From Botryllus schlosseri (taxonomy: Eukaryota), in assembly GCA_051294905.1 (NCBI GenBank), contig CM119371.1, forward strand, positions 4,094,001-4,158,000: a stretch of 64,000 nucleotides of DNA, given 5' to 3'. The position numbers and the translations under genes are program-made. How positions within the stretch are numbered: the stretch's first letter is position 1; each line of letters opens with the position of its first letter. Shown in pieces: positions 36,938 through 55,030 of the stretch. The notes beneath the pieces are model-generated. The model saw only the letters and a list, made by a program, of their open reading frames with translations. It was not told the DNA's origin and searched no databases.

Positions 36938-37489
36938 CAGGGTTGTACTGACTCGAGTCACGATTTTCTAATGACTCGACTTGACTCGAGTCATATTTTC
37001 AAAATACGGAATTGACTCGACTCGACTCGAGTCAATCTGTGTATTGACTCGACTAGGACTCGAGACATTGCGCATGACTCGAACCAAGTCATTGACTCGA
37101 GACTCAGACGGCCAAGACCGACATTTCATTGTAATTCCAACACACTATTGGGATTTCTTCTGTTGGTACTGGTACTTGAAAATGCGACCAGAAACTGTTA
37201 AAAGTAGGGAAAAATTGGTATATTTTAAAAGCGAACCGTTCGCTATCACCAAACAGAGTTACAATAAGTGGGTTTACCAAGACTTTATCTGGAAGCTGAG
37301 CAGTGAACGCGATGACTTGGACCCGGACTCGAGTCATAATTCCATGACTCGGACTCGACCCTCTGCTCACTAACTTGGACTCGGACTTGACTCGGTGGTG
37401 AGTTGAAATGACTCGACTTGACTCGAGTCAAAACCATAAAAGTGGGATTGACTTGTGACTCGGAGCCTTGTGACTTGGTTACAACCCTG
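36938..37489. mobile_element. hAT MITE (CAGGGTTGTA family)
   Basis: Similar to 35112-35705; TSD TACAACAG/TACTATAG. Confidence 0.8.
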
Positions 37490-37540
37490 TACTATAGTAG
37501 CAGCGCAATTCGTAAATAAACAGTTACACGCACGAAACAC

Positions 37541-38208
37541 CAGTGTTGGGATCAAGTCACTACCTTCGAGTCACGAGTCATCTCGAGTCATTGCACATTT
37601 TGACTCGAGTCAAGTCAAGTCAATCGAATTTCGAAGGTGACTCGAGTCAAGTCAAGTCACTCGTTTTTTGGAGGTGACTCGAGTCAAGTCGAGTCAAGTC
37701 AACTCAAGTCACGAGTCAAGTCACAGTTCAAGTCAAATTGAATTTTCGAAGCATGAGTGATGATTCAAAGTGGGCGCTGCGCAATGTAAGCACGAAGCCG
37801 TCTAAGAAACAGAGATGCGTTGCTATTAGAACCAGATTAATCTACTACTACTACGACGTAAGCTGTGCTCATTTCGTTTGCGGTCAATTTATTTATGATG
37901 TAACAAGAAAGGTTCAGTGAAACGTACAATCAGTGAATGAATGATTATTCTCACAAGTGGCATCGGCGTATAGCGAACAATCCGAACATACACAAGACAC
38001 AGATATTTAGTCGAGCCAGTTTACTTGATGACTTGAAATTGACTCGTGAATTTTGCTCCGAGTCACGAGTCAATCCACATTTCTGAAGCACCGAGTCAAG
38101 TCAAGTCAAGTCATTTTCGCAAAGTGACTCGAGTCAAGTCAAGTCATACGAAAAAGTTGACTCGAGTCTGACTCGAGTCAAGTCATGACTCGAGTCATCC
38201 CAACACTG
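37541..38208. mobile_element. hAT MITE (CAGTGTTGGGAT family), copy 3, inverted
   Basis: Same TIRs as 4444-5366; perfect TSD CGAAACAC. Confidence 0.9.
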
Positions 38209-38224
38209 CGAAACACATGCACTA

Positions 38225-38940
38225 ATGAGAAATTTGTAGGTTATAGAGGAAATCTTTTTGTCTCATAAAATAGTTTTGTTCAACTGAATAATAGTAGACT
38301 CCAGCACTTTTAGATGAAACAAAGACCTACCACGCGCAATGACAGTGAACATATTGTCATCATATAGTGCTGTGCACAGGCGAGGTTTTCACTCAAGTGC
38401 TGACCAATTGACGAAGCATATGCTTGGTAATCGTCATAGCAGTCTGTTTTGGCAGCCAATTTGCACTGACGTGCAAGCTCCGTGCGAGTATTTGCACATG
38501 TTTTTGACCGAATCAATTTTGGGATATACTGCTTAATACGCTCAAACAATCTTTGAGATGTACGTCCTACATACCTACTATCACAGTGGCACTTGTGTTG
38601 GTAAACAACATTACTTGCATTAAAGGCTGGAAGTACATCTTTTCGAGAGTTAGGCAACAAGGGCTTCGTTGTGTACACCACATGCGTATTTACGCTATAA
38701 TAACATCGGCGAACAGCCGATTTAATGAGTTTTTTAAAACGGTTAGACACGTTACCTAGCCAAGGTAGGTGTACAAAATGCCGGGCATTTTTCTGGCCCG
38801 TATTTGGGAGCTATATCCGATTTTGTCAAAACCCTAGAGATGGCGCATTTTAAAATATGGTCTGGATAGCCATTTTTTATTTTACAATGGATATTGCATT
38901 TAAAGCTGGTTTCAGATATTACTGTCAAATATTTATCCAT
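38225..38940 (-). pseudogene. Penelope-like retroelement remnant (post-RT linker + GIY-YIG endonuclease)
   Basis: KNGYP..PKYGPEKCP; KDVLP..SNVVYQHKCHCDSRYVGRTSQRLFERIKQ; SSIGQHL; FHLKVLES; frameshifted. Confidence 0.8.
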
Positions 38941-39760
38941 TCTCAGCCCACGTGATCAGATTAACATTGGGTTGCCAGTTGCCATACGCCCGGAATTTGC
39001 CGTACATGTCCGGAATTTTACCGTTCAAACTGCGTCCGGGAGGAATTTCTTGAATATGCCTAAATTTCTGGAATTTTGACGGCTTCACGAAGGCTAATAA
39101 TGTTTTCGTAAATCATCATAATGACATTAACATTAGATTTATGCTACATGAAATTTTTATTCGCGCAGCGCGCAATTTACTACAACATATATTGATTTTA
39201 TTATGGGGATTACCACCCTATCAAAAACTGCAATAAAATAAATTATAATAACCTTCATTTAGTAAAATAAGCCTAATTGTATCGTAACTATAGGATAACG
39301 GTATCTAGATACGGTTACGGCCGTTTAACGGCATATTCCAAGAGACGGTTACGGCCGTTTAAATGCTTTATACAAATATAGTGATGCTTGTAAACGTGAG
39401 GGTCGTTTGACTGTATTATGGGGTTCGCGAAGATGTTGAACGTATAATCAGCTTCCAAAATAGGCTGTGAGTAAGTCTGGGTAAAGGTGCTGACTGCTGA
39501 GTTCTTCAAGTAACCAGCTCGTCAGATTTTGATTTGGGCCAAGGAACATTTTCAAATTGGAGATGGTGTCGCGACCATAAAAGGCTGGAAAGCACAGGAT
39601 TGGTGTGTTTATAAAGCTCCGTGGTGCGCACCGGCATTAGACTGAAAACTAATCTGATCGGTGTGACATGAACATGACTTAAAGACATTTCATGCTGGTG
39701 ACGTCATATTTTGTGTTACGATTGTTGATATACGCTGTTCTTTCGAATTCTCTACTAGTT

Positions 39761-39804
39761 GCTGACGATTACCCCTGACGAGTGTCAGCCGAAAATATTC
39801 GGGT
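39761..39804 (+). ncRNA. Minimal type I hammerhead ribozyme motif
   Basis: ACCC-CTGACGA-GTGTCAGCC-GAAA-ATATTC-GGGT: both conserved core boxes, stem I ACCC/GGGT, palindromic mini stem III, NUH triplet ending at C39800. Confidence 0.6.
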
Positions 39805-40227
39805 TCATTTTAATATGAATATACTATTCAATTGTATATTGAAGTTCTGTACCTCAAAGAAGCTGACTTAAAGATGTACAATTACGCTCCCTGTATTTTT
39901 GAATTCATCATTCTCCACCAGCTCTGCCGCTAACTCTGATCATGTGGGCGGAGATCTGATCAAACTATAGGCCTATTGCAATATAAGGAAGGAAAAATAT
40001 AATTCATGTACAGTCATGCATGTCCATGTGGGAATAAGATGAAGTGACCATTAAATTCTGCCTTCAACTTAATACAGATACTGCAAGCTGCCGTTACGAG
40101 AAACGGCAAAGAACGGCTGGGTAATGATATATATCAGCGGCTTTTGATTTTTAATGCTTCGTTGTGGAAACCGTAATGTGTACAAAATTTCAAATCTTTA
40201 TCCGGTGAACGTACGTACGTACGTACT

Positions 40228-42776
40228 TTGGGTTGCATTTAAAACAAACGGTGTTTTAAAACACTTTGTTTAAAACATGTCTTAGACAGTATTTTTCATA
40301 AAGGCCATTTTAAAACACAAACAAAATTGTATTACTTTTCAAGTTGTAAAATTATGCCACAATTGTGCAATTACTTTCCAAAAACATGCTGTATGATCCT
40401 GCGGACAATTACCTCCTGATATAGCTGACGTATATCGATGTGCGATGGTTGAAACCAGGGCTGTGGACTCGGTAAATTTTACCACCGACTCCGGCTCCGA
40501 CTCCGACTCCACACATTTTCAATATACCGACTCCGGCTCCGACTCCGACTCCTGAGTCTCTAAATGTACCGACTCCGACTCCGACTCCGACTCCTGGGTC
40601 TTTAAACGTACCGACTCCGACTCCGACTCCCGACTCCGACTCCAGCATTATTACCAATTTCCTTCGAAAATTATATGCCACATTGTCGGTTGAATGACTA
40701 TCATACAACCATTAAACATATGATTAACTGTGGCATGCTAAATTGTTTCATTGTGGCACAGCTCGAATTAACCACTATGCAATTAACATGAAATATAAAT
40801 TTGCTAAATATCCTTCCTTATTCAAGTTTTTATAACATGGACTCTCTAATATCCTGAAATGTATGAATCATTCAAATATGGCAGATATCCAATCCTGTAT
40901 AATAAAAATGTAGATAAAAAATCCAAGTGTAGCTCTTGTGTATGACTCAGCAACTAATAAAGAAATTGAACTTACTAATTTTGTCATTGCACACTATCCT
41001 GATTACAAGCACAAACACTCTTACTACTAATAATAGACATTGGTCATAAATGGAATTTAGTTAAGTAGTCTAAGACCATAGCCTATGTCTAGTCTATGTA
41101 CTTAATCAATTATTCAAGGATTGGGACTTGCAGTCTTTCTTAATCATTTGTTCGACCCAAACAGCTAAGCTACACTACAAATATTTTTAATTTTGTCAAT
41201 TGGGAACCATCGTTTGGTCATATTTACATATTTTTTACAATTTTACAAAACCAGCCGATGCATTTTCTCTGTCACAATATCATGGTATAATTCCAAAAAT
41301 TGCATCAATTTTGACTGCATCGCGAAAACGCATCTTGCGATTTTCTTCCCCTCTGCAACTGAGTTGTAATTTGCAAGTATTGTCTAATTTTATCTATATC
41401 AGGGGTAGGCAACTTATTCGGCGAAAGGGACACCTGAGATTTACGAACCATTGCGCGGGCAACTGGAATGTTGATAACCTTTTTTAGTCGTCGATAGGAG
41501 CGAACCGAATTAGGTAACATTGCAAACAAGACTTATATTATTACGCTCTAAAATTGATAACAATATGTCATGCAACTGTGCAGTGCGCAATCAGGTCCTG
41601 GTCGCGCGAAGCGCGAAATTTTTTTGCCTGATAACGACTGAATTAGGCTATAGCTATATTAATAAATATGTCGCGAACATACATTGGGGGTCGCATCTGT
41701 ATACCACTGGGCTCATTTGGCAAGGACAGGATTATTCGACGTTTAGACATAGCAAAATCGACTGTATCAGTGAGCTTGAACATGCCTCTATCATTTTGTG
41801 CAAATGTTTTGTCGACGATCTCGCTGCGAGTGCACAAGCGAAGCCGTATCTCCTAATTGCGAATATAGTTAGACTCAATTCTGTGAATAATATGTAGGCT
41901 ATTTATAATTTTCAGAAGGGGGCTCAAATACTGAATGCAAGAAATCTAGTGACAATGAATCATGCGAAGCACCGAGAAAAATTTCAAGTCAAATATATCT
42001 GCTATGAAATATTCTACTTCATGGTCATATATACGAAGATCTGGGATAAATGTGGCTGACCCTGGATACGTCAATGCGTCAGAACTGTTGTTTTGGTCAT
42101 CATCAAATTTCGTGGTCATGCTAATCAAATTTTGGTTGGCCTTGCAATTGTACCTGATGTCATAAATAATTTCGAGGATTACCTCTCAGGCCACAACTAA
42201 CCTTCTCGTGTGTCAAATTTGGCCTGCGTGCCACGGGCTGGCCGCACCTGATCTGTATGGTTAATATTAACAGTGATTGGTGGTACATAAAAATTCTATT
42301 GAAAATTCTTTGAAAGCAAATGTTTTCATGATAGAGAAGTCGGAGTCGGAGTCGAAGTCATAGTCATTCTCACAAACTCCGACTCCGACTCCAGTCAGTA
42401 TTTTCCCACCGACTCCGACTCCGACTCCGACTCCAGCTATTATGGTTTTCACGACTCCGACTCCGACTCCGACTCCATCAAGCGAAAATGACCCCGACTC
42501 CGACTCCACCGACTCCGACTCTGACTCCACAGCCCTGGTTGAAACCCTAAAATAGTCGGTTCAACATTAATAGTACAGATATTTCGTCAAAGGAGCTATA
42601 TTTACCCTATATTTTTCAATTGTTAATGTCATTCCACTATGACGTCAAAATTGAATGTTCGTGACGTCATGACTTTAAAACAACAACAGTAAAAAAACAT
42701 TAAAAACATGTTTTAATTAGGGTCTTATTTTAAACATGTTTGTTTTAAATTGATTTTTGTTTTGAATGCAACCCTA
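40228..42776. mobile_element. hAT MITE hosting composite element copy 2
   Basis: T(T/A)GGGTTGCATT ... AATGCAACCCTA; TSD TACGTACT, whose right copy is split by the element at 42783-45815. Confidence 0.75.
40456..42537. mobile_element. ~2-kb composite non-autonomous hAT element, copy 2
   Basis: Same TIRs as copy 1; perfect TSD GTTGAAAC. Confidence 0.92.
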
Positions 42777-42782
42777 TACGTA

Positions 42783-45700
42783 GGGGAGATGTGGTACCGA
42801 TGGATCACTGGGACCGAAAATACTTTGTAAAATCTCTATGATAATTCCATGGTTGCACTCCGTGAACTTGTCTACAATTGCATGCTGGCAACATCTTTCC
42901 TCACATACAAAAAAATTTGACGTGCGCGAGCAATGGGGTCTCTCACAGATGATTTTTGTTTTAGGGGGTGTAAACTAAATTTTGATCGACATATACATTT
43001 TTCTTTGTAACCTTCAACACGAAGAAACCAGCAATCATTTTTATTGTGAAGTGTAGGGCTTGTATCAGGCTATATAATGGCACCTATTATTTTTTTCAGT
43101 ACTTTCCTTGAGTGGACTTTTTTTCGATTTATGTATAAAATTCGTAGGGTGGGGACCGATGATACAATAGCCAAATCAAGCAAAATAATCAAGCATACTA
43201 ATCACGAAACAAATGAAACATGCCTACGTATAGAAAATCTTTATGTAATAATTGCATATGATGTTTTATCGCTATAACGAGGTATTTGAAAGCAGGGCTG
43301 TGGAGTCGGTAAATTTTACCACCGACTCAGGCTCCGACTCCGACTCCACACATTTTCAATATACCGACTCCGACTCCGACTCCAACTCCCGAGTCTTCGA
43401 ACGTACCGACTCCGACTCCGACTCCGACTCCTGGGTCTTTAAACGTACCGATTCCGACTCCCGACTCCGACTCCGACTCCAGCAATATTACCAATTTACT
43501 TCGAAAATGATATGCCACATTGTCGGTTGAATGACTATCATACAACCATTAAACATATTCAAACATATGAATAACGGTGGCATGCTAAATTGTTTCATTG
43601 TGGAACAGCTCGAATTATCCACTATGCAATTAACATGAAAGAAAGATTTGCTAAATATCCTTCCCTTTTCAAGTTTTTATAACGTGGACTCTCTAATATC
43701 CTGAAATGTATGAATCATTCAAATATGGCAGATATCCAATAATGTATGATAAAATGTAGATAAAAAATCCAAGTGTAGCTCTTGTGTATGAGGTAGCAAC
43801 TAATAAAAGATATTGAACTTACTAATTTTGTCATTGCACACTATCCTGATTACAAGCACACACACTCTAACTACTAATAGACATTGGTCATAAATGGAAT
43901 TTAGTTAAGTAGTCAAAGACCATAGCCTATGTCTAGTCTACACGTACTTAATCAAGTATTCAAGGATTGGGACTTGCAGTCTTTCTTAATCATTTGTTCG
44001 ACCCAAACAGCTAAGCTACACTACAAATATTTTTCATTTTGTCAAGCGGGAAGTATCGTTTGGTCATATTTACATCATTTTTACAATTTTACAAAACCAG
44101 CCGATGCGTTTGCTCTGTCACAGTATCATGGTATAATTCCAAGAATTGCATCAATTTCGACTGCATCGCGAAAACGCATTTTGCGATTTTCTTCCCCTGT
44201 GCAACTGAGTTGTAATTAATGTAGTAAGTAATGTCTAATTTTATCTATATCAGGGGTGGGCAACTTTGTCGGCCAAAGGGAAACATGAGATTTACGAACC
44301 ATTGCGCGGGCAACTGGAATGTTGATAACCTTGTTTTAGTCGTCCGATAGGAGCAAACCGAATTAGGTAACATTGCAAACAATAGTTACGCTCTAAAATT
44401 GATAATATGCCATGCAACTGTGCAGTGCGCAATCAGGCCCTTGTCGCGCGAAGCGCGAAATTTTTTTGCAATATAATGCCTGAATTATATCAATAAATAT
44501 GTTGCTAACATACATTGGGGGTCGCATTTGTATACCACTGGGCTCATTTGGCAAGGACAGGATTATTCGATGTTTAGAAATAGCAAAATCGACGGTATCA
44601 GTGAACATGCCTCTATCATTTTGTGCAAATGTTTTGTCGACGATCTCGCTGCGAGTGCACAAGCAAAGCCGTATCTCCTTTTTGCGAATATAGTTAGACT
44701 CAATTCTGTGAATAATATGTATTTATAATTTTCAGAAGGGGGCTCAAATAGGCCTACTGAATGCAAGAAATCTAGTGACAGTGAATCACGCGAAGTACAG
44801 AGAAAAATTTCAAGTCAAATAAATCAGCTATGAAACATTCTACTTTATTGTCATATACGAAGATCTGGGATAAATGTGGCTGGCCCCTGGATACGTCAAT
44901 GCGTCAGAACTGTTGTTTTAGTCATCATCAAATTTCGCGGTCATGCTAATCAAATTTTGGTTGGCCTTGCAATTGTACCTGATGTCATAAATAATTTCGA
45001 GAATTACGTCACAGGCCACACCTAACCTTCTCGTGTGCCAAATTTGGCCTGCGTGCCATGGGCTTGCCGCACGTGATCTGTATGGTTATTAATAACAGTG
45101 ATTGGTGGTACATAAAAATTATATTGAAAATTCTTTGAAAGCAAATGTTTTCATGATAGAGAAGTTGGAGTCGGAGTCGGAGTCGAAGTCAGGGTCATTC
45201 TCACAAACTCCGACTCCGACTCCAGTCAGTATTTTCCCACCGACTCCGACTCCGACTCCAGCTATTATAGTTTTCACGACTCCGACTCCGACTCCATCAA
45301 GCGAAAATTACCCAGACTCCGACTCCGACTCCACCGACTCCAACTCCGACTCCACAGCCCTGTTTGAAAGTCACACTGTCGATTTTCAGGCAATATGTAT
45401 GTACCCGCAAATTTATAAGTCCGTGGCTAAATCGAAACGTGATTTTATGACAAACATTTGAGTTAATATTTATTCTATTTTTTGACAGTTGCGACCAAAC
45501 ATTCTTCTTTGGCTTGCTGTAGCTTAGATTATAATACTGAGCACGAAAAGTAGTCACATTTGAGTTTTTTAGGGTATGTGTGTCATAGGTCCCCGGGTCG
45601 TGTGTCATTGGGGTGGGGACCGATGACACGTTCGAGCAAAAAAATTTGAACGTCCATAAATATTTTTTGAGAAGACGGATATTCATGTATATGTGCGCGA

Positions 45701-47112: not shown

Positions 47113-48610
47113 CAGTGGTTCTCAACCTTTTTGGCTTCGCGGACCCCTTTTGACCGTCACGGCCCCTCGCGGACCCCCTCAAGTTTTAGTTCAATTTTAG
47201 CTCTGTTATGGAGCAACCTTCATCTGTCTTGTGCAAATATGAACAGTAGGCTTGTGATAAACAGCAAAATAATGATTTTTATTGAAAATAACATCATACT
47301 GTTTATGTAGAAATTGGTAGAATTTTATTATTTCAAAGCTAATTTTGCTGCTGTATTTCTTGAAGTACGTGGTCGTGTCTTGAAAATCCGCGTCTTCGTT
47401 TTGATATGAACGAGGAGTGCCGAAAACCATTTCCGCAAAGATAGATGGAGGCTAATGCAATATTAATGCATAACGCTTCCGACGATACTTTTGGCGTGAT
47501 CGCAACATTTATGGCAACAGTATGAAGAAATATATATTTTATGAACATATCACGTCCTGCATCTAGCGCAGGGACGGGCAACATACGGACCGCGGGCCGG
47601 ATCCGGACCACGACAGCATTTTGATTGGCCCACAGAGAGTTTCTACCGTCAAAGTGAAATCCTAATCTAAAAGTATAGACAAATTTTATGCGCCAAAGAA
47701 TGGATACAAGTTTTCCTACCTGAGAAAGACTGTCATGAACGACTTGTTCTGTTCGAGTTTACATATATATTTACGAGGAAACATTTTCGACCATGAACAA
47801 TTGAACATTAACAAGACAAGGCTGCATACCAATACAACTGGTGATGTGAATTTCAGGGTTTGGGGCGTAATGCTTTGATAGCAACGAAACACTCCTTGTT
47901 CATCAAAAAAGTCAGCCTTGTCGATAGGGCACCCGCAATAAGAATGCGCCAAATCTGATAGCCGAGCTTTGAGGGCAGGTATATCATTGTCCGATTTATG
48001 ACGAGTGTCAGCCGAAAATATTCGGGTTCATTTCAATATGAATATACTATGATTCAATTGTATATTGAAGTTCTGTACCTCCAAGAAGCTGCTCAAATAG
48101 TGGGTATGTATATCACAGAATGAAGTGGATTTCGTGGCGAGGTTTCAATCCCTGCATAGGGACAAATTAGGGAAATACTTCGGAAACTTTTATTTCAAAC
48201 GACTGTTCACTAATTCGATGAGCCTGACAATTTTAAATCGAGAAGGTTTCGCAGACATTACGAAGTCACCCTGATTGACGTTGCTATCTCCATATTTTTA
48301 TTTTTTCCACAAACATCAACAAAACGTCTCTAAACAGCAATATCTTTGTATCAGTCGGTTATTGGAAAATTGGCAATGAAAATGAATTTCCACACTACGA
48401 TAGTTCATGTCAGACGATTATTATGATGATATGAGTCATGAGGTTTTAGCAGTTGTGCTGCGAAACTGCCTCATGCTTTCTCAAATTAAAAATAAAAATA
48501 AGACAAAAATTACGTTATCAACCATTTAAAAATTTTAGAGGTCTCGCGGACCCCCTGAAATTGCTTCGCGGACCCCTAGGGGTCCGCGGACCCCCGGTTG
48601 AGAACCGCTG
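47113..48610. mobile_element. hAT MITE with nested fragments
   Basis: CAGTGGTTCTCAACC ... GGTTGAGAACCGCTG; perfect TSD GTCTAGAG. Confidence 0.85.
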
Positions 48611-50692: not shown

Positions 50693-51441
50693 TAGGGTTA
50701 CCATATTTCAGCAATCCAAATTCCGGACACTCTTTAGCGCCCACTAGTGGATTTCAAAATGAGTTATGACGTCACACCAGCAAAGCTTTGCTCATAGACC
50801 AGAGGTGATCACGGTCCGGTTCAGGAGTTTGTGGCTGTGTGTTGTGTAACTGGGACCGAAAGCACATGTTTTCAGCCCCCTCCCGCCCAAATAAACAATG
50901 ATTTTGAGCCCACACTATAGGGTAATCGATGCAACTTCTGAAGGAGGGGTGCTTGCTATATGCATCTGGCCGTTAAATTATTTGGAAGCTGACTACGTTT
51001 AACATATTCGCAAACCCCAGAATAAAGGCAAATGACCCCCCCCCCCACGTTTGGAACCACTATCTTTGAATAAAGCATTTAAATGGCCTTAACGACCACT
51101 AGGAATATACCGTTCTCCTATAATTGCGATTTCAATTTGGCTTATTCCAGTAAATGAAGGTCGTTTTTATTTATATTTTATGGCAGTTTTTGCGAGGGTG
51201 GTAGTCTCCATATTAAAATTAATAAATGTGATAGTAAATCGCGCGCAGCGCGAAGAAAAATATCATACATCGGCATAAATATTCCAAAACAATATTGTTT
51301 TTATGCTGATTTACGAAAAAAATTATGAGCCTACGTCGAAATTCCGGACATTTAGCATATTTTAGAAATTCCTCCCGGACGCTAGTTTGAACAGTGAAAT
51401 TCCGGACATGTCCGGGAAATTCCGGACGTATGGCAACCCTA
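50693..51441. mobile_element. hAT MITE with TCCGGAC subterminal repeats
   Basis: TAGGGTTACCATA ... TATGGCAACCCTA; perfect TSD AATTAGGC; inverted partial copy at ~38968-39500. Confidence 0.85.
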
Positions 51442-52618
51442 AATTAGGCTTACCATACGTCCTCTTTTAAGAAGATTTGTCCTCTTTTTTGACTTTTTTG
51501 AAAGTGTCCTCGGAGGACGCCCTTTTGTCCTCTTTTTTGAGATTTTTTCCTCTTTTTGGAAAATTTAGGCAGATTTAGAGCAAATTGCGAGTGATATGCC
51601 GTATATTAGCACAGAAGTGAAGCTTCGGCGGGTATTTCGGAGTGAAAAACGGTGATTTTAGGTCTGAGCGAAAAGATTACCTTTTTTTTTTTTTAAGTCA
51701 TCCACCTGGCAATGTGGAGTAAAAAACGTTATTTGTGCACCGAACGCTCTCTCATTCAAAGTTTCATGCTGGTGACGTCATATTTTGTTACACGATTGTT
51801 GATATATAATGTTCTTTCTTATTCTCTACTAGTTGCTGACGATTACTCGTGACGATTGTCAGCCGAAAATATTCGGGTTTCATTTTAATATGAATATACT
51901 ATTCAATTGTATACTGAAGTTGTGTACCTCCAAGAAGCTCTTCAAACTGTAAGTTTAAAACATGGAGATCAAAAGCAGTATTGAATGAATATAATATTAT
52001 GAATATAATATATTAAGCTAATGCTCTTGAATAGCTGTTGAAATCAATCAGACATCTGTGGTCGACCAAAGTTCTTTGGCCTCTGGCTGCATGTCGGCTG
52101 TAAAAAGTTGTAACCCTTGGTAAAGACTAGGCTTACACGTGAACATCAGTTACACTAAAACGCAGCCTTGTCTTGTTAATCTGCGTGGTCGCAAATGTCT
52201 ACTCGCAAATGTATGTAGCCCCGAACAGAATATAGTTTCATGATCATCTTTCTCAGGTTGTCAAAATTGGTCAACACTTTCAGATCAGACCGGGCCACAC
52301 AAGAGAAATATACAAAAAATTAAAATCGCAGAAGGCGGGTGTTTAAGCATTTTGTATGGGGTGGCCACCACCCCATAAATGTGTCATGGGGGGACTGCGC
52401 CGCGCCGTAACTTGGCGCCCATGCTGCAACCTATCAATTTGTTAATGTGCATCTAGAACCAAAACTAAAGACTCAATGTGGATATACCAGTATTGCAAAT
52501 GCACTGTTTACGTTCTAATGATGCAAATTGTTTAGATTTGTTACACACTATAATACATAGCAGGTGGTGGAATAAATTGAAGATTCTGTAAACCTGTAGT
52601 GATCACTTCCACATAAAG

Positions 52619-53977
52619 ATGAAAGATCGTCTGTGCGATATAGCCAAGAAACCACTTTCTCAAAAAGTTAACCGCAAGCCTAATATTTGTGCGCATGCTG
52701 GCATCATTAATCGTGACTGTGATATATGTGGTAAATCATTCACTTGGAAGAGTCAGCTCAAGTCTCATATGGATATACATATTGGCGCTAAAAAGCACCA
52801 ATGTGATATATGTGGAAAAGCATTCTCTGCCAAGGGAATCCTTGGATGTCATATGAATACGCATGCTGGCGTCAGAAATCATAAATGTGATATATGTGGG
52901 AAATCATTCATTCGGAAGGGCCACCTCTCAGTTCACATGGATATGCATGCCGGTACCAAAAATCACAAATGTGATGTTTGTGGGAAAGCATTCACTTGGA
53001 AGAGTCAGCTCAAGTCTCATATGGATGTACATATTGGCGCTAAAAAGCACCAATGTGATATATGTGGAAAAGCATTCTCTTCAAAAGGAATCCTTGAACG
53101 TCATATGGATGTGCATGCTGGCGTCAAAAATCATAAATGTGATATATGTGGTAAATCATTCATTCGGAAGGGCCACCTCTCGGTTCACATGGATATGCAT
53201 GCCGGTAACAAAAATCACAAATGTGATGTTTGTGGGAGATCATTCACTAGGAAGGAAGAACTCACGCACCATATAAAATTACATGTCGGTAACAAAAATC
53301 ATAAATGTGATATATGTGAAAATTCATTTGTGCACAAGAGTAGCCTCAACAAACATATGGATATCCATGCGGGGGTGAAAAATCACAAATGCGATATATG
53401 TGGAAAAGCATTCACTCAGAATCGCCAGCTCTCACTCCATATGGATATGCATGTTGGTATGAAAAATCATAAATGTGATGTTTGTGGGAGAGCATTCACT
53501 CAGAAGGGAGATCTCACGCACCATATGAAAGTGCATGCTGGTATAAAAAATCATAAGTGTGATATATGTGGGAATTCATTTGTGCGCAAGTATAGCCTAA
53601 ACAAACATATGGATATCCATGCTGGCGTAAAAAATCACAAATGTGATATATGTGGAGAAGCATTCACTCAGAAAGACAACCTCAAGCGTCATACGAAAAT
53701 ACATGCCGGTAACAAAAATCATAAATGTGATATATGTGGGAATTCATTTGTGCGCAAGGGTACCCTCAACAATCATATGGATATCCATGCGGGTGTGAAA
53801 AATCACGAATGTGATATATGTGGGAAAGCATTCACTCAGAAGGAAACCCTCAAGTGTCATATGGATATGCATGCTGGAATCAAGAGGCATAAATGTGATA
53901 TATGTGGGAAAACATTTAGTCAGAAGGGCCACCTCATGCGTCATATGGATATGCATGCTTGTAACAAAAAGCAATAA
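52619..53977 (+). CDS. C2H2 zinc-finger protein exon, 15 tandem fingers
   Basis: 28-aa repeats CDICGKxF..L..HM..H with AGxKNH linkers; upstream exons not identified. Confidence 0.9.
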   Translation: MKDRLCDIAKKPLSQKVNRKPNICAHAGIINRDCDICGKSFTWKSQLKSHMDIHIGAKKHQCDICGKAFSAKGILGCHMNTHAGVRNHKCDICGKSFIRKGHLSVHMDMHAGTKNHKCDVCGKAFTWKSQLKSHMDVHIGAKKHQCDICGKAFSSKGILERHMDVHAGVKNHKCDICGKSFIRKGHLSVHMDMHAGNKNHKCDVCGRSFTRKEELTHHIKLHVGNKNHKCDICENSFVHKSSLNKHMDIHAGVKNHKCDICGKAFTQNRQLSLHMDMHVGMKNHKCDVCGRAFTQKGDLTHHMKVHAGIKNHKCDICGNSFVRKYSLNKHMDIHAGVKNHKCDICGEAFTQKDNLKRHTKIHAGNKNHKCDICGNSFVRKGTLNNHMDIHAGVKNHECDICGKAFTQKETLKCHMDMHAGIKRHKCDICGKTFSQKGHLMRHMDMHACNKKQ

Positions 53978-54040
53978 TGTTATGTATGTGGGAAAGCATT
54001 TACCGGGACGGCTAACCTCAAGCGTCATATGAATATCCAA

Positions 54041-55030
54041 TAGGGCTGTTCAAAAAAACAAGTTTTTCGTCAGATTTCACTAGCTACTTGATAAAATTGT
54101 TGGGTTGGTTAAAAAAAACGCTGCACACCAACTTTGGCTCAATTCCAATGGAAAGTTTTGAATTGCGATGATGAACAAAATTCACTTATGGTACTTATGT
54201 CATAGCAGTTCCAGTCAATTGAACTGCGGTCCTATTCGTTTATTGTGTGTCCCAAAGTTGAACTTGGAAACAAAGGCATACCACGAGTTGGTTGATATTG
54301 AACCTTATGAACAACGTCCTTCAGCGATTGAGCACTTAACTGATAAAAAGTTGGAAGAATGCCTCGAGAAGCCTCTGATTATGTTTCATCCATGCCTCAA
54401 TCAAACAGTGGAACGACCTGTAAAGCTCGTAACAGAAGCATCAGCACAAGTTTCGGGATTTGAAAGACGAGATGGCCTCATTCGCCAAAAATTAAGTCTC
54501 GTAAACTGATGAAAAAATTTGACACAAAAATGCATTTTCAATAAGTCGTTAAATGTGAGTGTTTCATTTTGATGTTTTGAACCGATTGTAAACGGACTGT
54601 GTTGTGAATATACTTGTATTATGGGCCCAATATTCGGTATTGTCAGTGTGTTACTTTTCTTTTCAAAAAACTGATGACGGATCACAATTCGTCAGAATAA
54701 ATGCTGAATTTCAACAAAATGCGTGTATATATTGTTTTTTGGCTATAACTCATTTTGTGTTCACGATAGAGAAAACTTTCTTCTTGAGACAGATAGAAAC
54801 ATGATGCTTCCGCAGATTTTGAGCTATATATCATGACTCTACGACCAGCGGTTGCCGAGATGGGCCATTTTACCCCCCCCCCCCCCATACGCGCAGAAAT
54901 TGGGGGGTTGCCGGCTGGAAAATGGGGGTAATAACCTGAAGTCACTTTTTATTGAAGTTTTAGGTCATTTGTCAGGATTGAGGAAGCCCGTTTTTCGATT
55001 TGAAAAAAAAGTCATTTTCATTCCACCCTA
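54041..55030 (+). mobile_element. DNA transposon derivative with transposase C-terminal remnant (family unassigned)
   Basis: TAGGG...CCCTA ends; ORF 54168-54509 has PCLNQTVERPVKLVTEAS..GFERRDGLIR; left end resembles ~10990-11200. Confidence 0.55.

Follow-up and report, generated by a model that had tools for sequence, protein, structure and literature searches.

The window, the whole stretch of DNA analysed here, is 64 kb of a 495-Mb assembly of the Botryllus schlosseri genome in 219 contigs (contig CM119371.1, positions 4,094,001 to 4,158,000). Within it lies a short plus-strand repeat that is the 3' end of a Penelope-like element (PLE), a retroelement, and that carries what appears to be a minimal hammerhead ribozyme motif. 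An earlier note on this DNA had placed the repeat at 39690-39865; the repeat is real, but comparison of the window copies and genomic loci showed that the homology of this copy (copy 1 below) covers 182 bp, 39684-39865, and so starts at 39684, not 39690. Its target-site duplication is 7-10 bp long, with GACTTAAAGA on either side (in another copy, L002, the duplication is 13 bp), and its 3' end falls 5-6 nt short of the family's commonest end. The insertion and the parts of the motif within it are laid out as follows.

39684 to 39865, plus strand: 5'-truncated insertion, the last 182 bp of a PLE (3' untranslated region, or UTR, and the tail with the open reading frame, or ORF, start that is used in tandem copies), from comparison with longer genomic copies
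39676 to 39685, plus strand: left copy of the target-site duplication, GACTTAAAGA, in which ACTTAAA (39677-83) is unambiguous and the last two bases overlap the element's first bases
39865 to 39874, plus strand: right copy of the target-site duplication, GACTTAAAGA, whose ends overlap element bases
39761 to 39767, plus strand: upstream box GCTGACG ("box 1"), complementary to loop II and forming, together with the core box, a direct repeat at 13-nt spacing (CTGACGATT / CTGACGAGT)
39771 to 39774, plus strand: stem I 5' strand ACCC, read directly, which pairs with GGGT at 39801-04
39775 to 39781, plus strand: core box CUGACGA (C3-A9), whose TGA is an in-frame stop just ahead of the ORF start region
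39782 to 39790, plus strand: remnant of helix II, G10.1-C11.1 (G39782-C39790), with loop UGUCAGC, the GUCAG of which can also pair with the core CUGAC
39791 to 39799, plus strand: GAAA box (G12-A15.1, 39791-94) overlapping the palindromic stem III hexamer AAUAUU (39794-99)
39800, plus strand: C17, with the predicted cleavage between 39800 and 39801, from hammerhead numbering
39801 to 39804, plus strand: stem I 3' strand GGGU
39815 to 39865, plus strand: first 17 codons of the PLE ORF, from its first ATG onward (MNILFNCILKFCTSKKL), read through into the reverse transcriptase (RT) only where another copy follows in tandem

The letters on which the ribozyme had been proposed (CTGACGA, GAAA, ACCC/GGGT, a 1-bp stem II and AATATT) were all found in place on direct reading, as was the complementarity of the TGTCAGC loop (39783-89) to GCTGACG (39761-67), which gives six Watson-Crick pairs and a G39767-U39783 pair. 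In hammerhead numbering, which is established and by which the predicted cut is placed after C17, the window copy has the core box C3-U4-G5-A6-N7-G8-A9, position 7 being the variable one, and this box is present too in three diverged lineage sequences (L092, L093 and L095). G12-A13-A14, the A15.1-U16.1 pair (U39799) and a non-G at position 17 (C39800) are likewise present, with the same found in the diverged lineages, and stem I is open-ended, as in type I, with 4 bp in the window copy. The first CTGACGA box (39762-68) was also considered as the core and was rejected on inspection, as no stem I is possible there, no G10.1-C11.1 pair exists and a 6/2 internal loop would come before the hairpin.

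The identity of the repeat is given by its longer copies elsewhere in the genome. A genome search with a 178-bp unit returned 1947 first-look candidates, of which 40 were scored, mostly at 99-100% identity, and the first 30 loci were fetched. In these loci 26 of the 34 full-length matches extend upstream into one common sequence, where the window copy stops at 39684; compared across loci, the copies have one common 3' end, and their 5' ends fall at differing points over the full length of the ORF. A long reading frame finishes in the upstream sequence, with a YVDD RT motif and a VYEFKC...GYVGRT endonuclease motif, recognized by eye as GIY-YIG. At one locus (L041) the frame is open over 857 codons (857 aa) and matches Pfam RVT_1 at E=1.1e-7 (32.2 bits, over the cut-off of 29.6), while the Pfam GIY-YIG match, at E=3.7e-4 and 21.2 bits, is just below its cut-off of 22.6 and covers profile positions 4-31 only. 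Its protein-atlas neighbours are animal RVT_1/HTH_animal clusters, and in one neighbour cluster GIY-YIG occurs in 27% of the members. The linkage of the repeat to PLE ORFs, a check suggested at the outset, was in this way borne out, as the longer copies run upstream into a frame with RT and a probable GIY-YIG.

Canonical endonuclease-bearing PLEs, as described in the parts of PMC8557442 and PMC11167929 that were available, have GIY-YIG after the RT, heavy 5' truncation, full or partial tandems from which pseudo-long terminal repeats (pLTRs) arise, adjacent inverted 5'-truncated copies and a variable 3' tail. Because the copies studied here show these published hallmarks, the "dispersed repeat" is identified as a PLE insertion that was dead on arrival and consists of 3' UTR and tail. 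Of the two identities offered by the earlier note, a PLE pseudo-LTR or a retrozyme-like family, the first holds, the repeat being PLE-derived and its 3' end being the pseudo-LTR in tandem copies, and the second falls away: the repeat is not a separate retrozyme-like family, and the copy is a piece of an autonomous element with RT and a probable GIY-YIG. The PLE family is young and very abundant, and for annotation copy 1 is an inert, dead-on-arrival transposon fragment.

The genomic architecture of the family is of the same kind. Full units follow one another head-to-tail at a spacing of 2692 bp, as a run of three on one contig (C16) and a pair on another (C2), and in an older lineage head-to-tail units are 2722-2723 bp apart (C7, C2, C10). 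Head-to-head inverted pairs of truncated copies are frequent (for example L004, L005, L009, L010, L022, L023 and L026), the L041 frame has a partial copy upstream of it, and 3' ends are far commoner than 5' regions (1947 versus 78 first-look candidates). Within the element the hammerhead motif is placed ~100 nt past the stop codon and ~80 nt before the 3' end. The UTR ahead of it holds a further conserved feature:

39699 to 39706, plus strand: TGACGTCA palindrome in the PLE 3' UTR, ~70 nt upstream of the hammerhead motif, kept in four of five diverged lineage sequences

This palindrome, which we take to be like a CRE (cyclic AMP response element), is a possible candidate for a pLTR promoter element. 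The block TGACGTCATA is retained in L092, L093 and L094, though the neighbouring UTR is barely alignable.

Conservation of the motif was seen both among young copies and across lineages. The exact 44-mer at 39761-39804 occurs 2539 times in the genome (1311 + 1228), as against 0 for its reversed control, and the identical 44-mer is found in 8 of 13 loci of subfamilies with UTRs ~90% identical to those of the young family. More distant lineages are represented by four pieces of 300-360 bp (L092, L093, L094 and L095), in which the ORF start regions are 79-84% identical and the UTRs barely align. CUGACGA, GAAA, U16.1 and C17 are retained in L092, L093 and L095. The 4-bp stem I ACCC/GGGU has become UAUUCCC/GGGAAUA in L095, a stem of 7 bp in which the fourth pair is flipped from A-U to U-A, and L092 and L093 have the same stem I as L095 apart from one bulged C (3 bp, the bulge and 3-4 bp). 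The stem III hexamer has changed from AAUAUU to AAGCUU, with both central positions altered and self-complementarity kept. Covariation across genomic copies had been named beforehand as a check, and for stems I and III it came out positive, in the form of compensated changes in the diverged lineages.

The change in stem III bears on how the ribozyme might work. Going from AAUAUU to AAGCUU preserves pairing only if two copies pair with each other, and it therefore agrees with a hammerhead working as a dimer. AAGCUU marks a real lineage: by hand count it makes up 62 among the first 100 listed of 379 non-U variants. The evidence for a dimer-type stem III is nonetheless modest, as a palindrome alone would turn up by chance about one time in five. 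From the retained core and the compensated stems it is concluded that the motif is, in all likelihood, this clade's homologue of the PLE hammerhead and that it appears to have been under constraint.

The motif also stands at the start of the ORF. The RT-encoding frame is open from the TGA inside the CUGA box, and its first ATG (39815-17) follows the predicted cut by 15 nt; 39779-39865 corresponds, at 97% identity, to the opening 29 residues of the L041 frame. In every lineage seen this ATG is conserved together with the next codons, and in those with an intact core (the young family, L092, L093 and L095) it lies at +10 to +15 from the predicted cut. Since each copy bears the ORF start at its 3' end, a complete ORF is found only where one copy follows another. 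The window insertion would have been made by target-primed reverse transcription, and productive copies would be those standing head-to-tail, with the tail of one serving as the pseudo-LTR of the next. Two hammerheads might pair through the palindromic stem III and cut after C17, and such cleavage would trim a multimeric or read-through transcript to an RNA starting 14 nt before the ORF AUG. Cleavage and the dimer mode are predictions, a role in processing the RNA 5' end is suggested here by analogy with proposals for PLE hammerheads (PMC4209133), and the role of such hammerheads is called unclear in the available parts of PMC8557442 and PMC11167929. The placement of the motif would, in any case, offer a testable link between ribozyme processing and the translation of PLE RNA.

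Taken whole, this explanation, in which an autonomous PLE left a 5'-truncated insertion that was dead on arrival and has the 182-bp repeat as its 3' end, with a tail that carries the clade's conserved minimal type I hammerhead motif and with the pLTR and dimer processing just outlined, is given a probability of roughly 0.8.

Several observations weigh against it. Helix II is only 1 bp in the young family (G82-C90) and 2 bp (GG/CC) in the older lineages, where it closes the invariant GUCAG; with a helix of 1-2 bp, the predicted cleavage activity would probably be weak and may need cofactors. The nested hammerhead fold of the young family is put at +5.2 to +0.1 kcal/mol, versus a minimum free energy (MFE) of -12.2, and in the young-family MFE fold the CUGA box is sequestered in a hairpin with the loop (CUGAC/GUCAG) while GAAA and the cut site lie in a second hairpin. 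The nested fold reaches -4.0 kcal/mol in L092 and -8.5 kcal/mol in L095, with MFE folds of -12.2 to -15.0 kcal/mol across the young family, L092 and L095. When L092 and L095 are cofolded, the MFE structure does contain stem I and an AAGCUU helix between two molecules, with the core still sequestered; the AAUAUU dimer helix is not in the young-family cofold MFE. The non-palindromic AACAUU makes up 24 among the same first 100 listed of the 379 non-U variants. A strict requirement for the motif is also hard to square with L094, in which the core has decayed, and with a recurrent haplotype (L065, L076 and L087) that has GCCGGAAATATT in place of the young-family GCCGAAAATATT; here GGAAA stands for GAAAA, with A13>G or a shifted register, plus other shared changes, and on account of this haplotype it can be said that lineages with a damaged motif still left copies. 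An experimental finding points the same way, as insertion of the Anolis PAc element in vitro did not need hammerhead cleavage, according to the part of PMC11167929 that was available.

Searches by profile belong with these points. No Rfam hammerhead match was obtained over the whole window at the gathering score, nor at E<=10 on 39600-39950, which is a weak test, as such a result is expected for minimal variants; the covariance-model search for a hammerhead, another of the checks named beforehand, thus failed to find one and gave only chance matches to small nucleolar RNAs and microRNAs at E>1. A whole-genome search with RF00163 also gave no match, but its control matched nowhere either.

RNA reads were examined as well. 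Among the indexed sequencing runs on record as RNA, none had the element. Four raw-read RNA runs were aligned to L041:1-2650, of which two (X21 and X22, with other organism labels) gave no aligned reads and two (X23 and X24) are single-cell RNA. The latter gave 1716 and 1208 reads, nearly all on positions 179-445, the tail, and on both strands, with a depth over the ORF of 0-10. About 65% of these reads continue into unrelated sequence, and they are truncated tails read through inside other transcripts. No read-end pile-up was found in X23 or X24 at L041 350/351, the predicted cut, which is again unfavourable to cleavage; because 3'-tag single-cell libraries show RNA 5' ends poorly, this absence gives no verdict on it. 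A few reads in the same runs have opposite-strand joints (161/2197, 331/374 and 139/351), and a few a 92-nt go-back (329 to 238, with 22 inserted letters), both of which are probably due to inverted or rearranged genomic copies rather than RNA processing.

A rival reading is that the hammerhead is a fossil, or has been repurposed, so that it no longer cuts and the block serves as a two-hairpin RNA signal (CUGAC/GUCAG and CCGAA/UUCGG), for example in RT/endonuclease binding or in setting where reverse transcription or translation begins. Two hairpins are what the MFE prediction gives, at -10.5 kcal/mol for a 34-mer (frequency 0.62) and -12.2 for a 61-mer, and the loop GUCAGC is invariant across lineages; the stunted helix II, the copies left by lineages with a damaged motif and the dispensability of cleavage for PAc insertion in vitro (PMC11167929, in part) all agree with such a role. 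On the other hand, all catalytic core positions are kept in the three undecayed diverged sequences (L092, L093 and L095), whereas hairpins alone need no G12, A13, A14 or C17, and the compensated changes in stem I and in the stem III palindrome serve a hammerhead and its dimer, not two hairpins. The closing pair of the first hairpin, C79-G84, is moreover lost in 91 G84>A copies and in the position 7 A/G variants, and the second hairpin follows near-automatically from any hammerhead with C17, G1.1 and an AAUAUU loop. A fossil is accordingly regarded as possible, though on the unlikely side.

A different answer to the short helix II would be to replace it. If the loop GUCAGC paired with the upstream GCUGAC, a surrogate helix II of 6-7 bp would be formed, with U83 bridging the groove, and the CUGA box would be freed from its autoinhibitory hairpin. 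The upstream pairing is predicted to be more stable than the inhibitory hairpin (-7.8 versus -5.4 kcal/mol), in length it agrees with the long helix II known from PLE hammerheads (PMC4209133, in the part available), and by our own reasoning the pseudoknot would be stereochemically possible with U83 spanning the deep groove of a helix of 6 bp. In L092, L093 and L094 the upstream box has stayed intact despite their diverged UTRs, and U>G changes at position 83 without loss of the rest would suit an unpaired bridging nucleotide. The variants tell otherwise. Among 70 A87>U copies, which include two recurrent haplotypes, 66 retain U63, leaving a mismatch in mid-helix, and 2 have a compensating A; among 91 G84>A copies a compensating T is found in the upstream box (T66) in 5 and in the core box in 8, which is what decay alone gives because both sites are CpGs. 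The loop II pseudoknot that the earlier note had raised as a possibility is thus unsupported, since the pairing-breaking A87>U and G84>A variants are uncompensated, with the caveat that covariation tests of this pairing are weak either way because CUGAC is fixed in both partners and the majority of copies were dead on arrival. The box also lacks its first two bases in the tandem-array lineage L095, and the simplest view of it is that the core box was duplicated locally at a 13-nt spacing (8 of 9 bases identical). A switching helix II of this sort is therefore unlikely.

A fuller version of the same idea would have the helix II hairpin lost in this PLE clade, with the invariant loop GUCAGC toggling between the catalytic CUGAC box, in a self-inhibited hairpin, and the upstream duplicate box, in a pseudoknotted surrogate helix II of 6-7 bp with a one-nucleotide bridge. 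This is quite improbable. If true, it would amount to a split-strand hammerhead topology with a built-in switch, a topology that is not among types I-III or the SGC/CSG/GCS permutations in the part of PMC10085705 that was available.

Short-period arrays of the PLE tail were also observed. At L078:812-1551 (C1, ~32.02 Mb) six tandem 123-nt units with 91% matches each start shortly upstream of the hammerhead motif and finish at the PLE 3' end; this looks like a nascent retrozyme-like array made from a PLE tail, and it is the only such mini-array seen among the loci examined. At L020:796-2217 and L021 (C6, ~17.955 Mb) 3-4 copies of the last ~349 bp of the element recur with a 534-bp period that takes in 185 bp of other sequence, and this could be a tandem duplication or a multimeric insertion.

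With such arrays in the genome, it might be asked whether the repeat is an independent non-autonomous family, a ~180-nt non-LTR retrozyme or something like a short interspersed element (SINE), that has borrowed a PLE tail. Thousands of short copies exist, each unit of the L078 array has the motif, the 534-bp-period array is a second case, and a preprint (10.64898/2026.07.22.740005, as far as available) derives animal retrozymes from PLE pLTRs. An independent family is nevertheless very unlikely: the 5' ends are not fixed but staggered along the full ORF, most full-length matches in the fetched loci (26 of 34, as above) run on into one ORF end, the window copy is truncated at a random point and flanked by a target duplication of its own, and short-period arrays were met in only 2 of the 40 scored 3'-end loci, namely L020 and L021, which are overlapping pieces of one array.

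The last alternative is a chance resemblance in AT-rich repeat DNA. With a relaxed descriptor (stem I of at least 4 bp, helix II of at least 1 bp, both strands) this single site was found in the window, and at least one match was found in 23 of 100 Markov-simulated 64-kb windows, with a mean of 0.26 per 64 kb, so that the motif alone is not significant. A search for other, canonical minimal hammerheads (helix II of at least 4 bp) in 354,486 bases of genome sequence gave one chance-looking match and so no second family to compare with. Despite those simulated matches and the empty Rfam search, pure chance is most improbable, as the rate scaled from the simulation is ~4e-4 per 200-nt tail on one strand, the position agrees with where PLEs carry hammerheads, the exact genomic copies stand against none for the control, and the core and the compensated stems I and III are conserved across diverged lineages.

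The remainder of the window holds further PLE pieces, among other repeats:

47999 to 48099, plus strand: copy 2, its tail truncated within the CUGA box, head-to-head with an inverted ORF fragment of the same PLE family
47839 to 47997, minus strand: this inverted ORF fragment, of the same PLE family as copy 1 (aa 228-281, 89% nucleotide identity), adjoining copy 2
51742 to 51946, plus strand: copy 3, an older one whose core has decayed (C3>G, G10.1>T, a C>T in stem I and one extra T), at 89% identity
38254 to 38777, minus strand: remnant of a different PLE family with its GIY-YIG end, at 41-50% aa identity

Two further copies with damaged cores had been described, and this applies to copy 3, whose core is mutated; copy 2 is truncated and has no mutation in the part that it retains, which is without C3 and the stem I 5' strand. 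The junction of copy 2 with the inverted ORF fragment is another typical PLE junction. The minus-strand Penelope remnant reported at ~800 bp from copy 1 does exist, about 0.9-1.4 kb away, but at 41-50% aa identity it is of a different family and unrelated to copy 1. In its 3' region (window 37850-38400), which is disrupted by GACTCGAGTCA-type repeats, no hammerhead was seen; a dense cluster of these palindromic repeats (inverted repeats I1, I4, I5 and I7) covers window positions 36949-38168, over that 3' region.

Other repeats were noted beside these. A segment of ~400 bp upstream of copy 1 (38978-39383) recurs inverted upstream of copy 3 (51058-51437), with 80-91% identity in three blocks, and is a further repeat family that neighbours the two PLE tails. 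Several unrelated loci hold matches, at 68-69% identity, to a 135-bp piece at 39511-39645. A tandem duplication of ~2.84 kb (40449-42528 and 43286-45347, 87-98% identity) is rich in GACTCC hexamer runs as 42-bp sub-repeats, and a satellite-like array at 52598-54073 has at least 15 copies with an 84-bp period and 68-80% identity over a 300-nt reference.

Judged by its letters, the motif is a member of the PLE minimal hammerhead kind, and its own cleavage is a prediction. In the part of PMC4209133 that was available, the hammerheads in PLE pLTRs are described as lying mostly in single truncated copies or in opposite-strand pairs 100-700 bp apart, and as cleaving weakly as dimers. The metazoan ribozymes described there and the motif in the present family are alike in being type I, with a full catalytic core, no loop-loop tertiary contacts, a small palindromic stem III that implies a dimer and a location in the terminal repeat; stem I is short in both (4-5 bp in the published examples and 4-7 bp here), and thousands of mostly solitary truncated copies, together with opposite-strand pairs, are common to both. 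The family offers a clean example of a young, high-copy PLE with tandems, inverted truncated pairs, target duplications and a tail hammerhead in one genome.

The one unusual point is the stunted helix II. The minimal hammerheads described from PLEs have a longer one, of 7-8 bp in Schistosoma and of 6 bp in D. virilis, whose 5' end has a single unpaired base (PMC4209133, in part), unlike the 1 bp found here (2 bp in the older lineages) and the invariant loop complementary to the core box and its upstream copy. In the available parts of the literature on PLE hammerheads no helix II as short as 1-2 bp was found; the supplementary figures of PMC4209133 may show such variants, and no novelty is claimed for it. 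If the motif cleaves, the descriptor used in hammerhead searches would have to be widened; if it does not, a PLE clade can thrive with a crippled ribozyme.

With canonical PLEs (PMC8557442 and PMC11167929, in the parts available) the family shares, in addition to an RT (here with a probable GIY-YIG after it), 5' truncation, tandems and pLTRs, inverted copies and a variable tail, a hammerhead situated close to where pLTR and ORF meet. The PAc element of Anolis differs in that its ORF begins within the hammerhead and its cut falls 26 bp after the start codon (PMC11167929, in part). Here the predicted cut precedes the first AUG by 14 nt, so that the ORF would survive cleavage intact.

Animal non-LTR retrozymes, which in the available part of PMC7229834 have a type I hammerhead in short AT-rich tandem repeats, resemble the L078 array in this respect, although its 123-nt unit is shorter than the ~170-400 nt retrozyme RNAs in print there. 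The array fits the proposal, made in the 2026 preprint 10.64898/2026.07.22.740005 (in the part available), that animal retrozymes derive from PLE pLTRs. In contrast to retrozymes, which are non-coding tandem repeats of ~150-450 bp that each have a type I hammerhead and are expressed as circular RNA, the window copy stands alone, with a target duplication of its own, and is part of a coding element. A more distant parallel is found in HDV-like (hepatitis delta virus-like) ribozymes that, in work by Ruminski et al. in 2011, reportedly process the 5' end of non-LTR retrotransposon transcripts. There, too, a self-cleaving RNA lies just upstream of an ORF and would release it from an upstream co-transcript, by way of another class of ribozyme and in another class of element, so that the likeness is one of analogy only.

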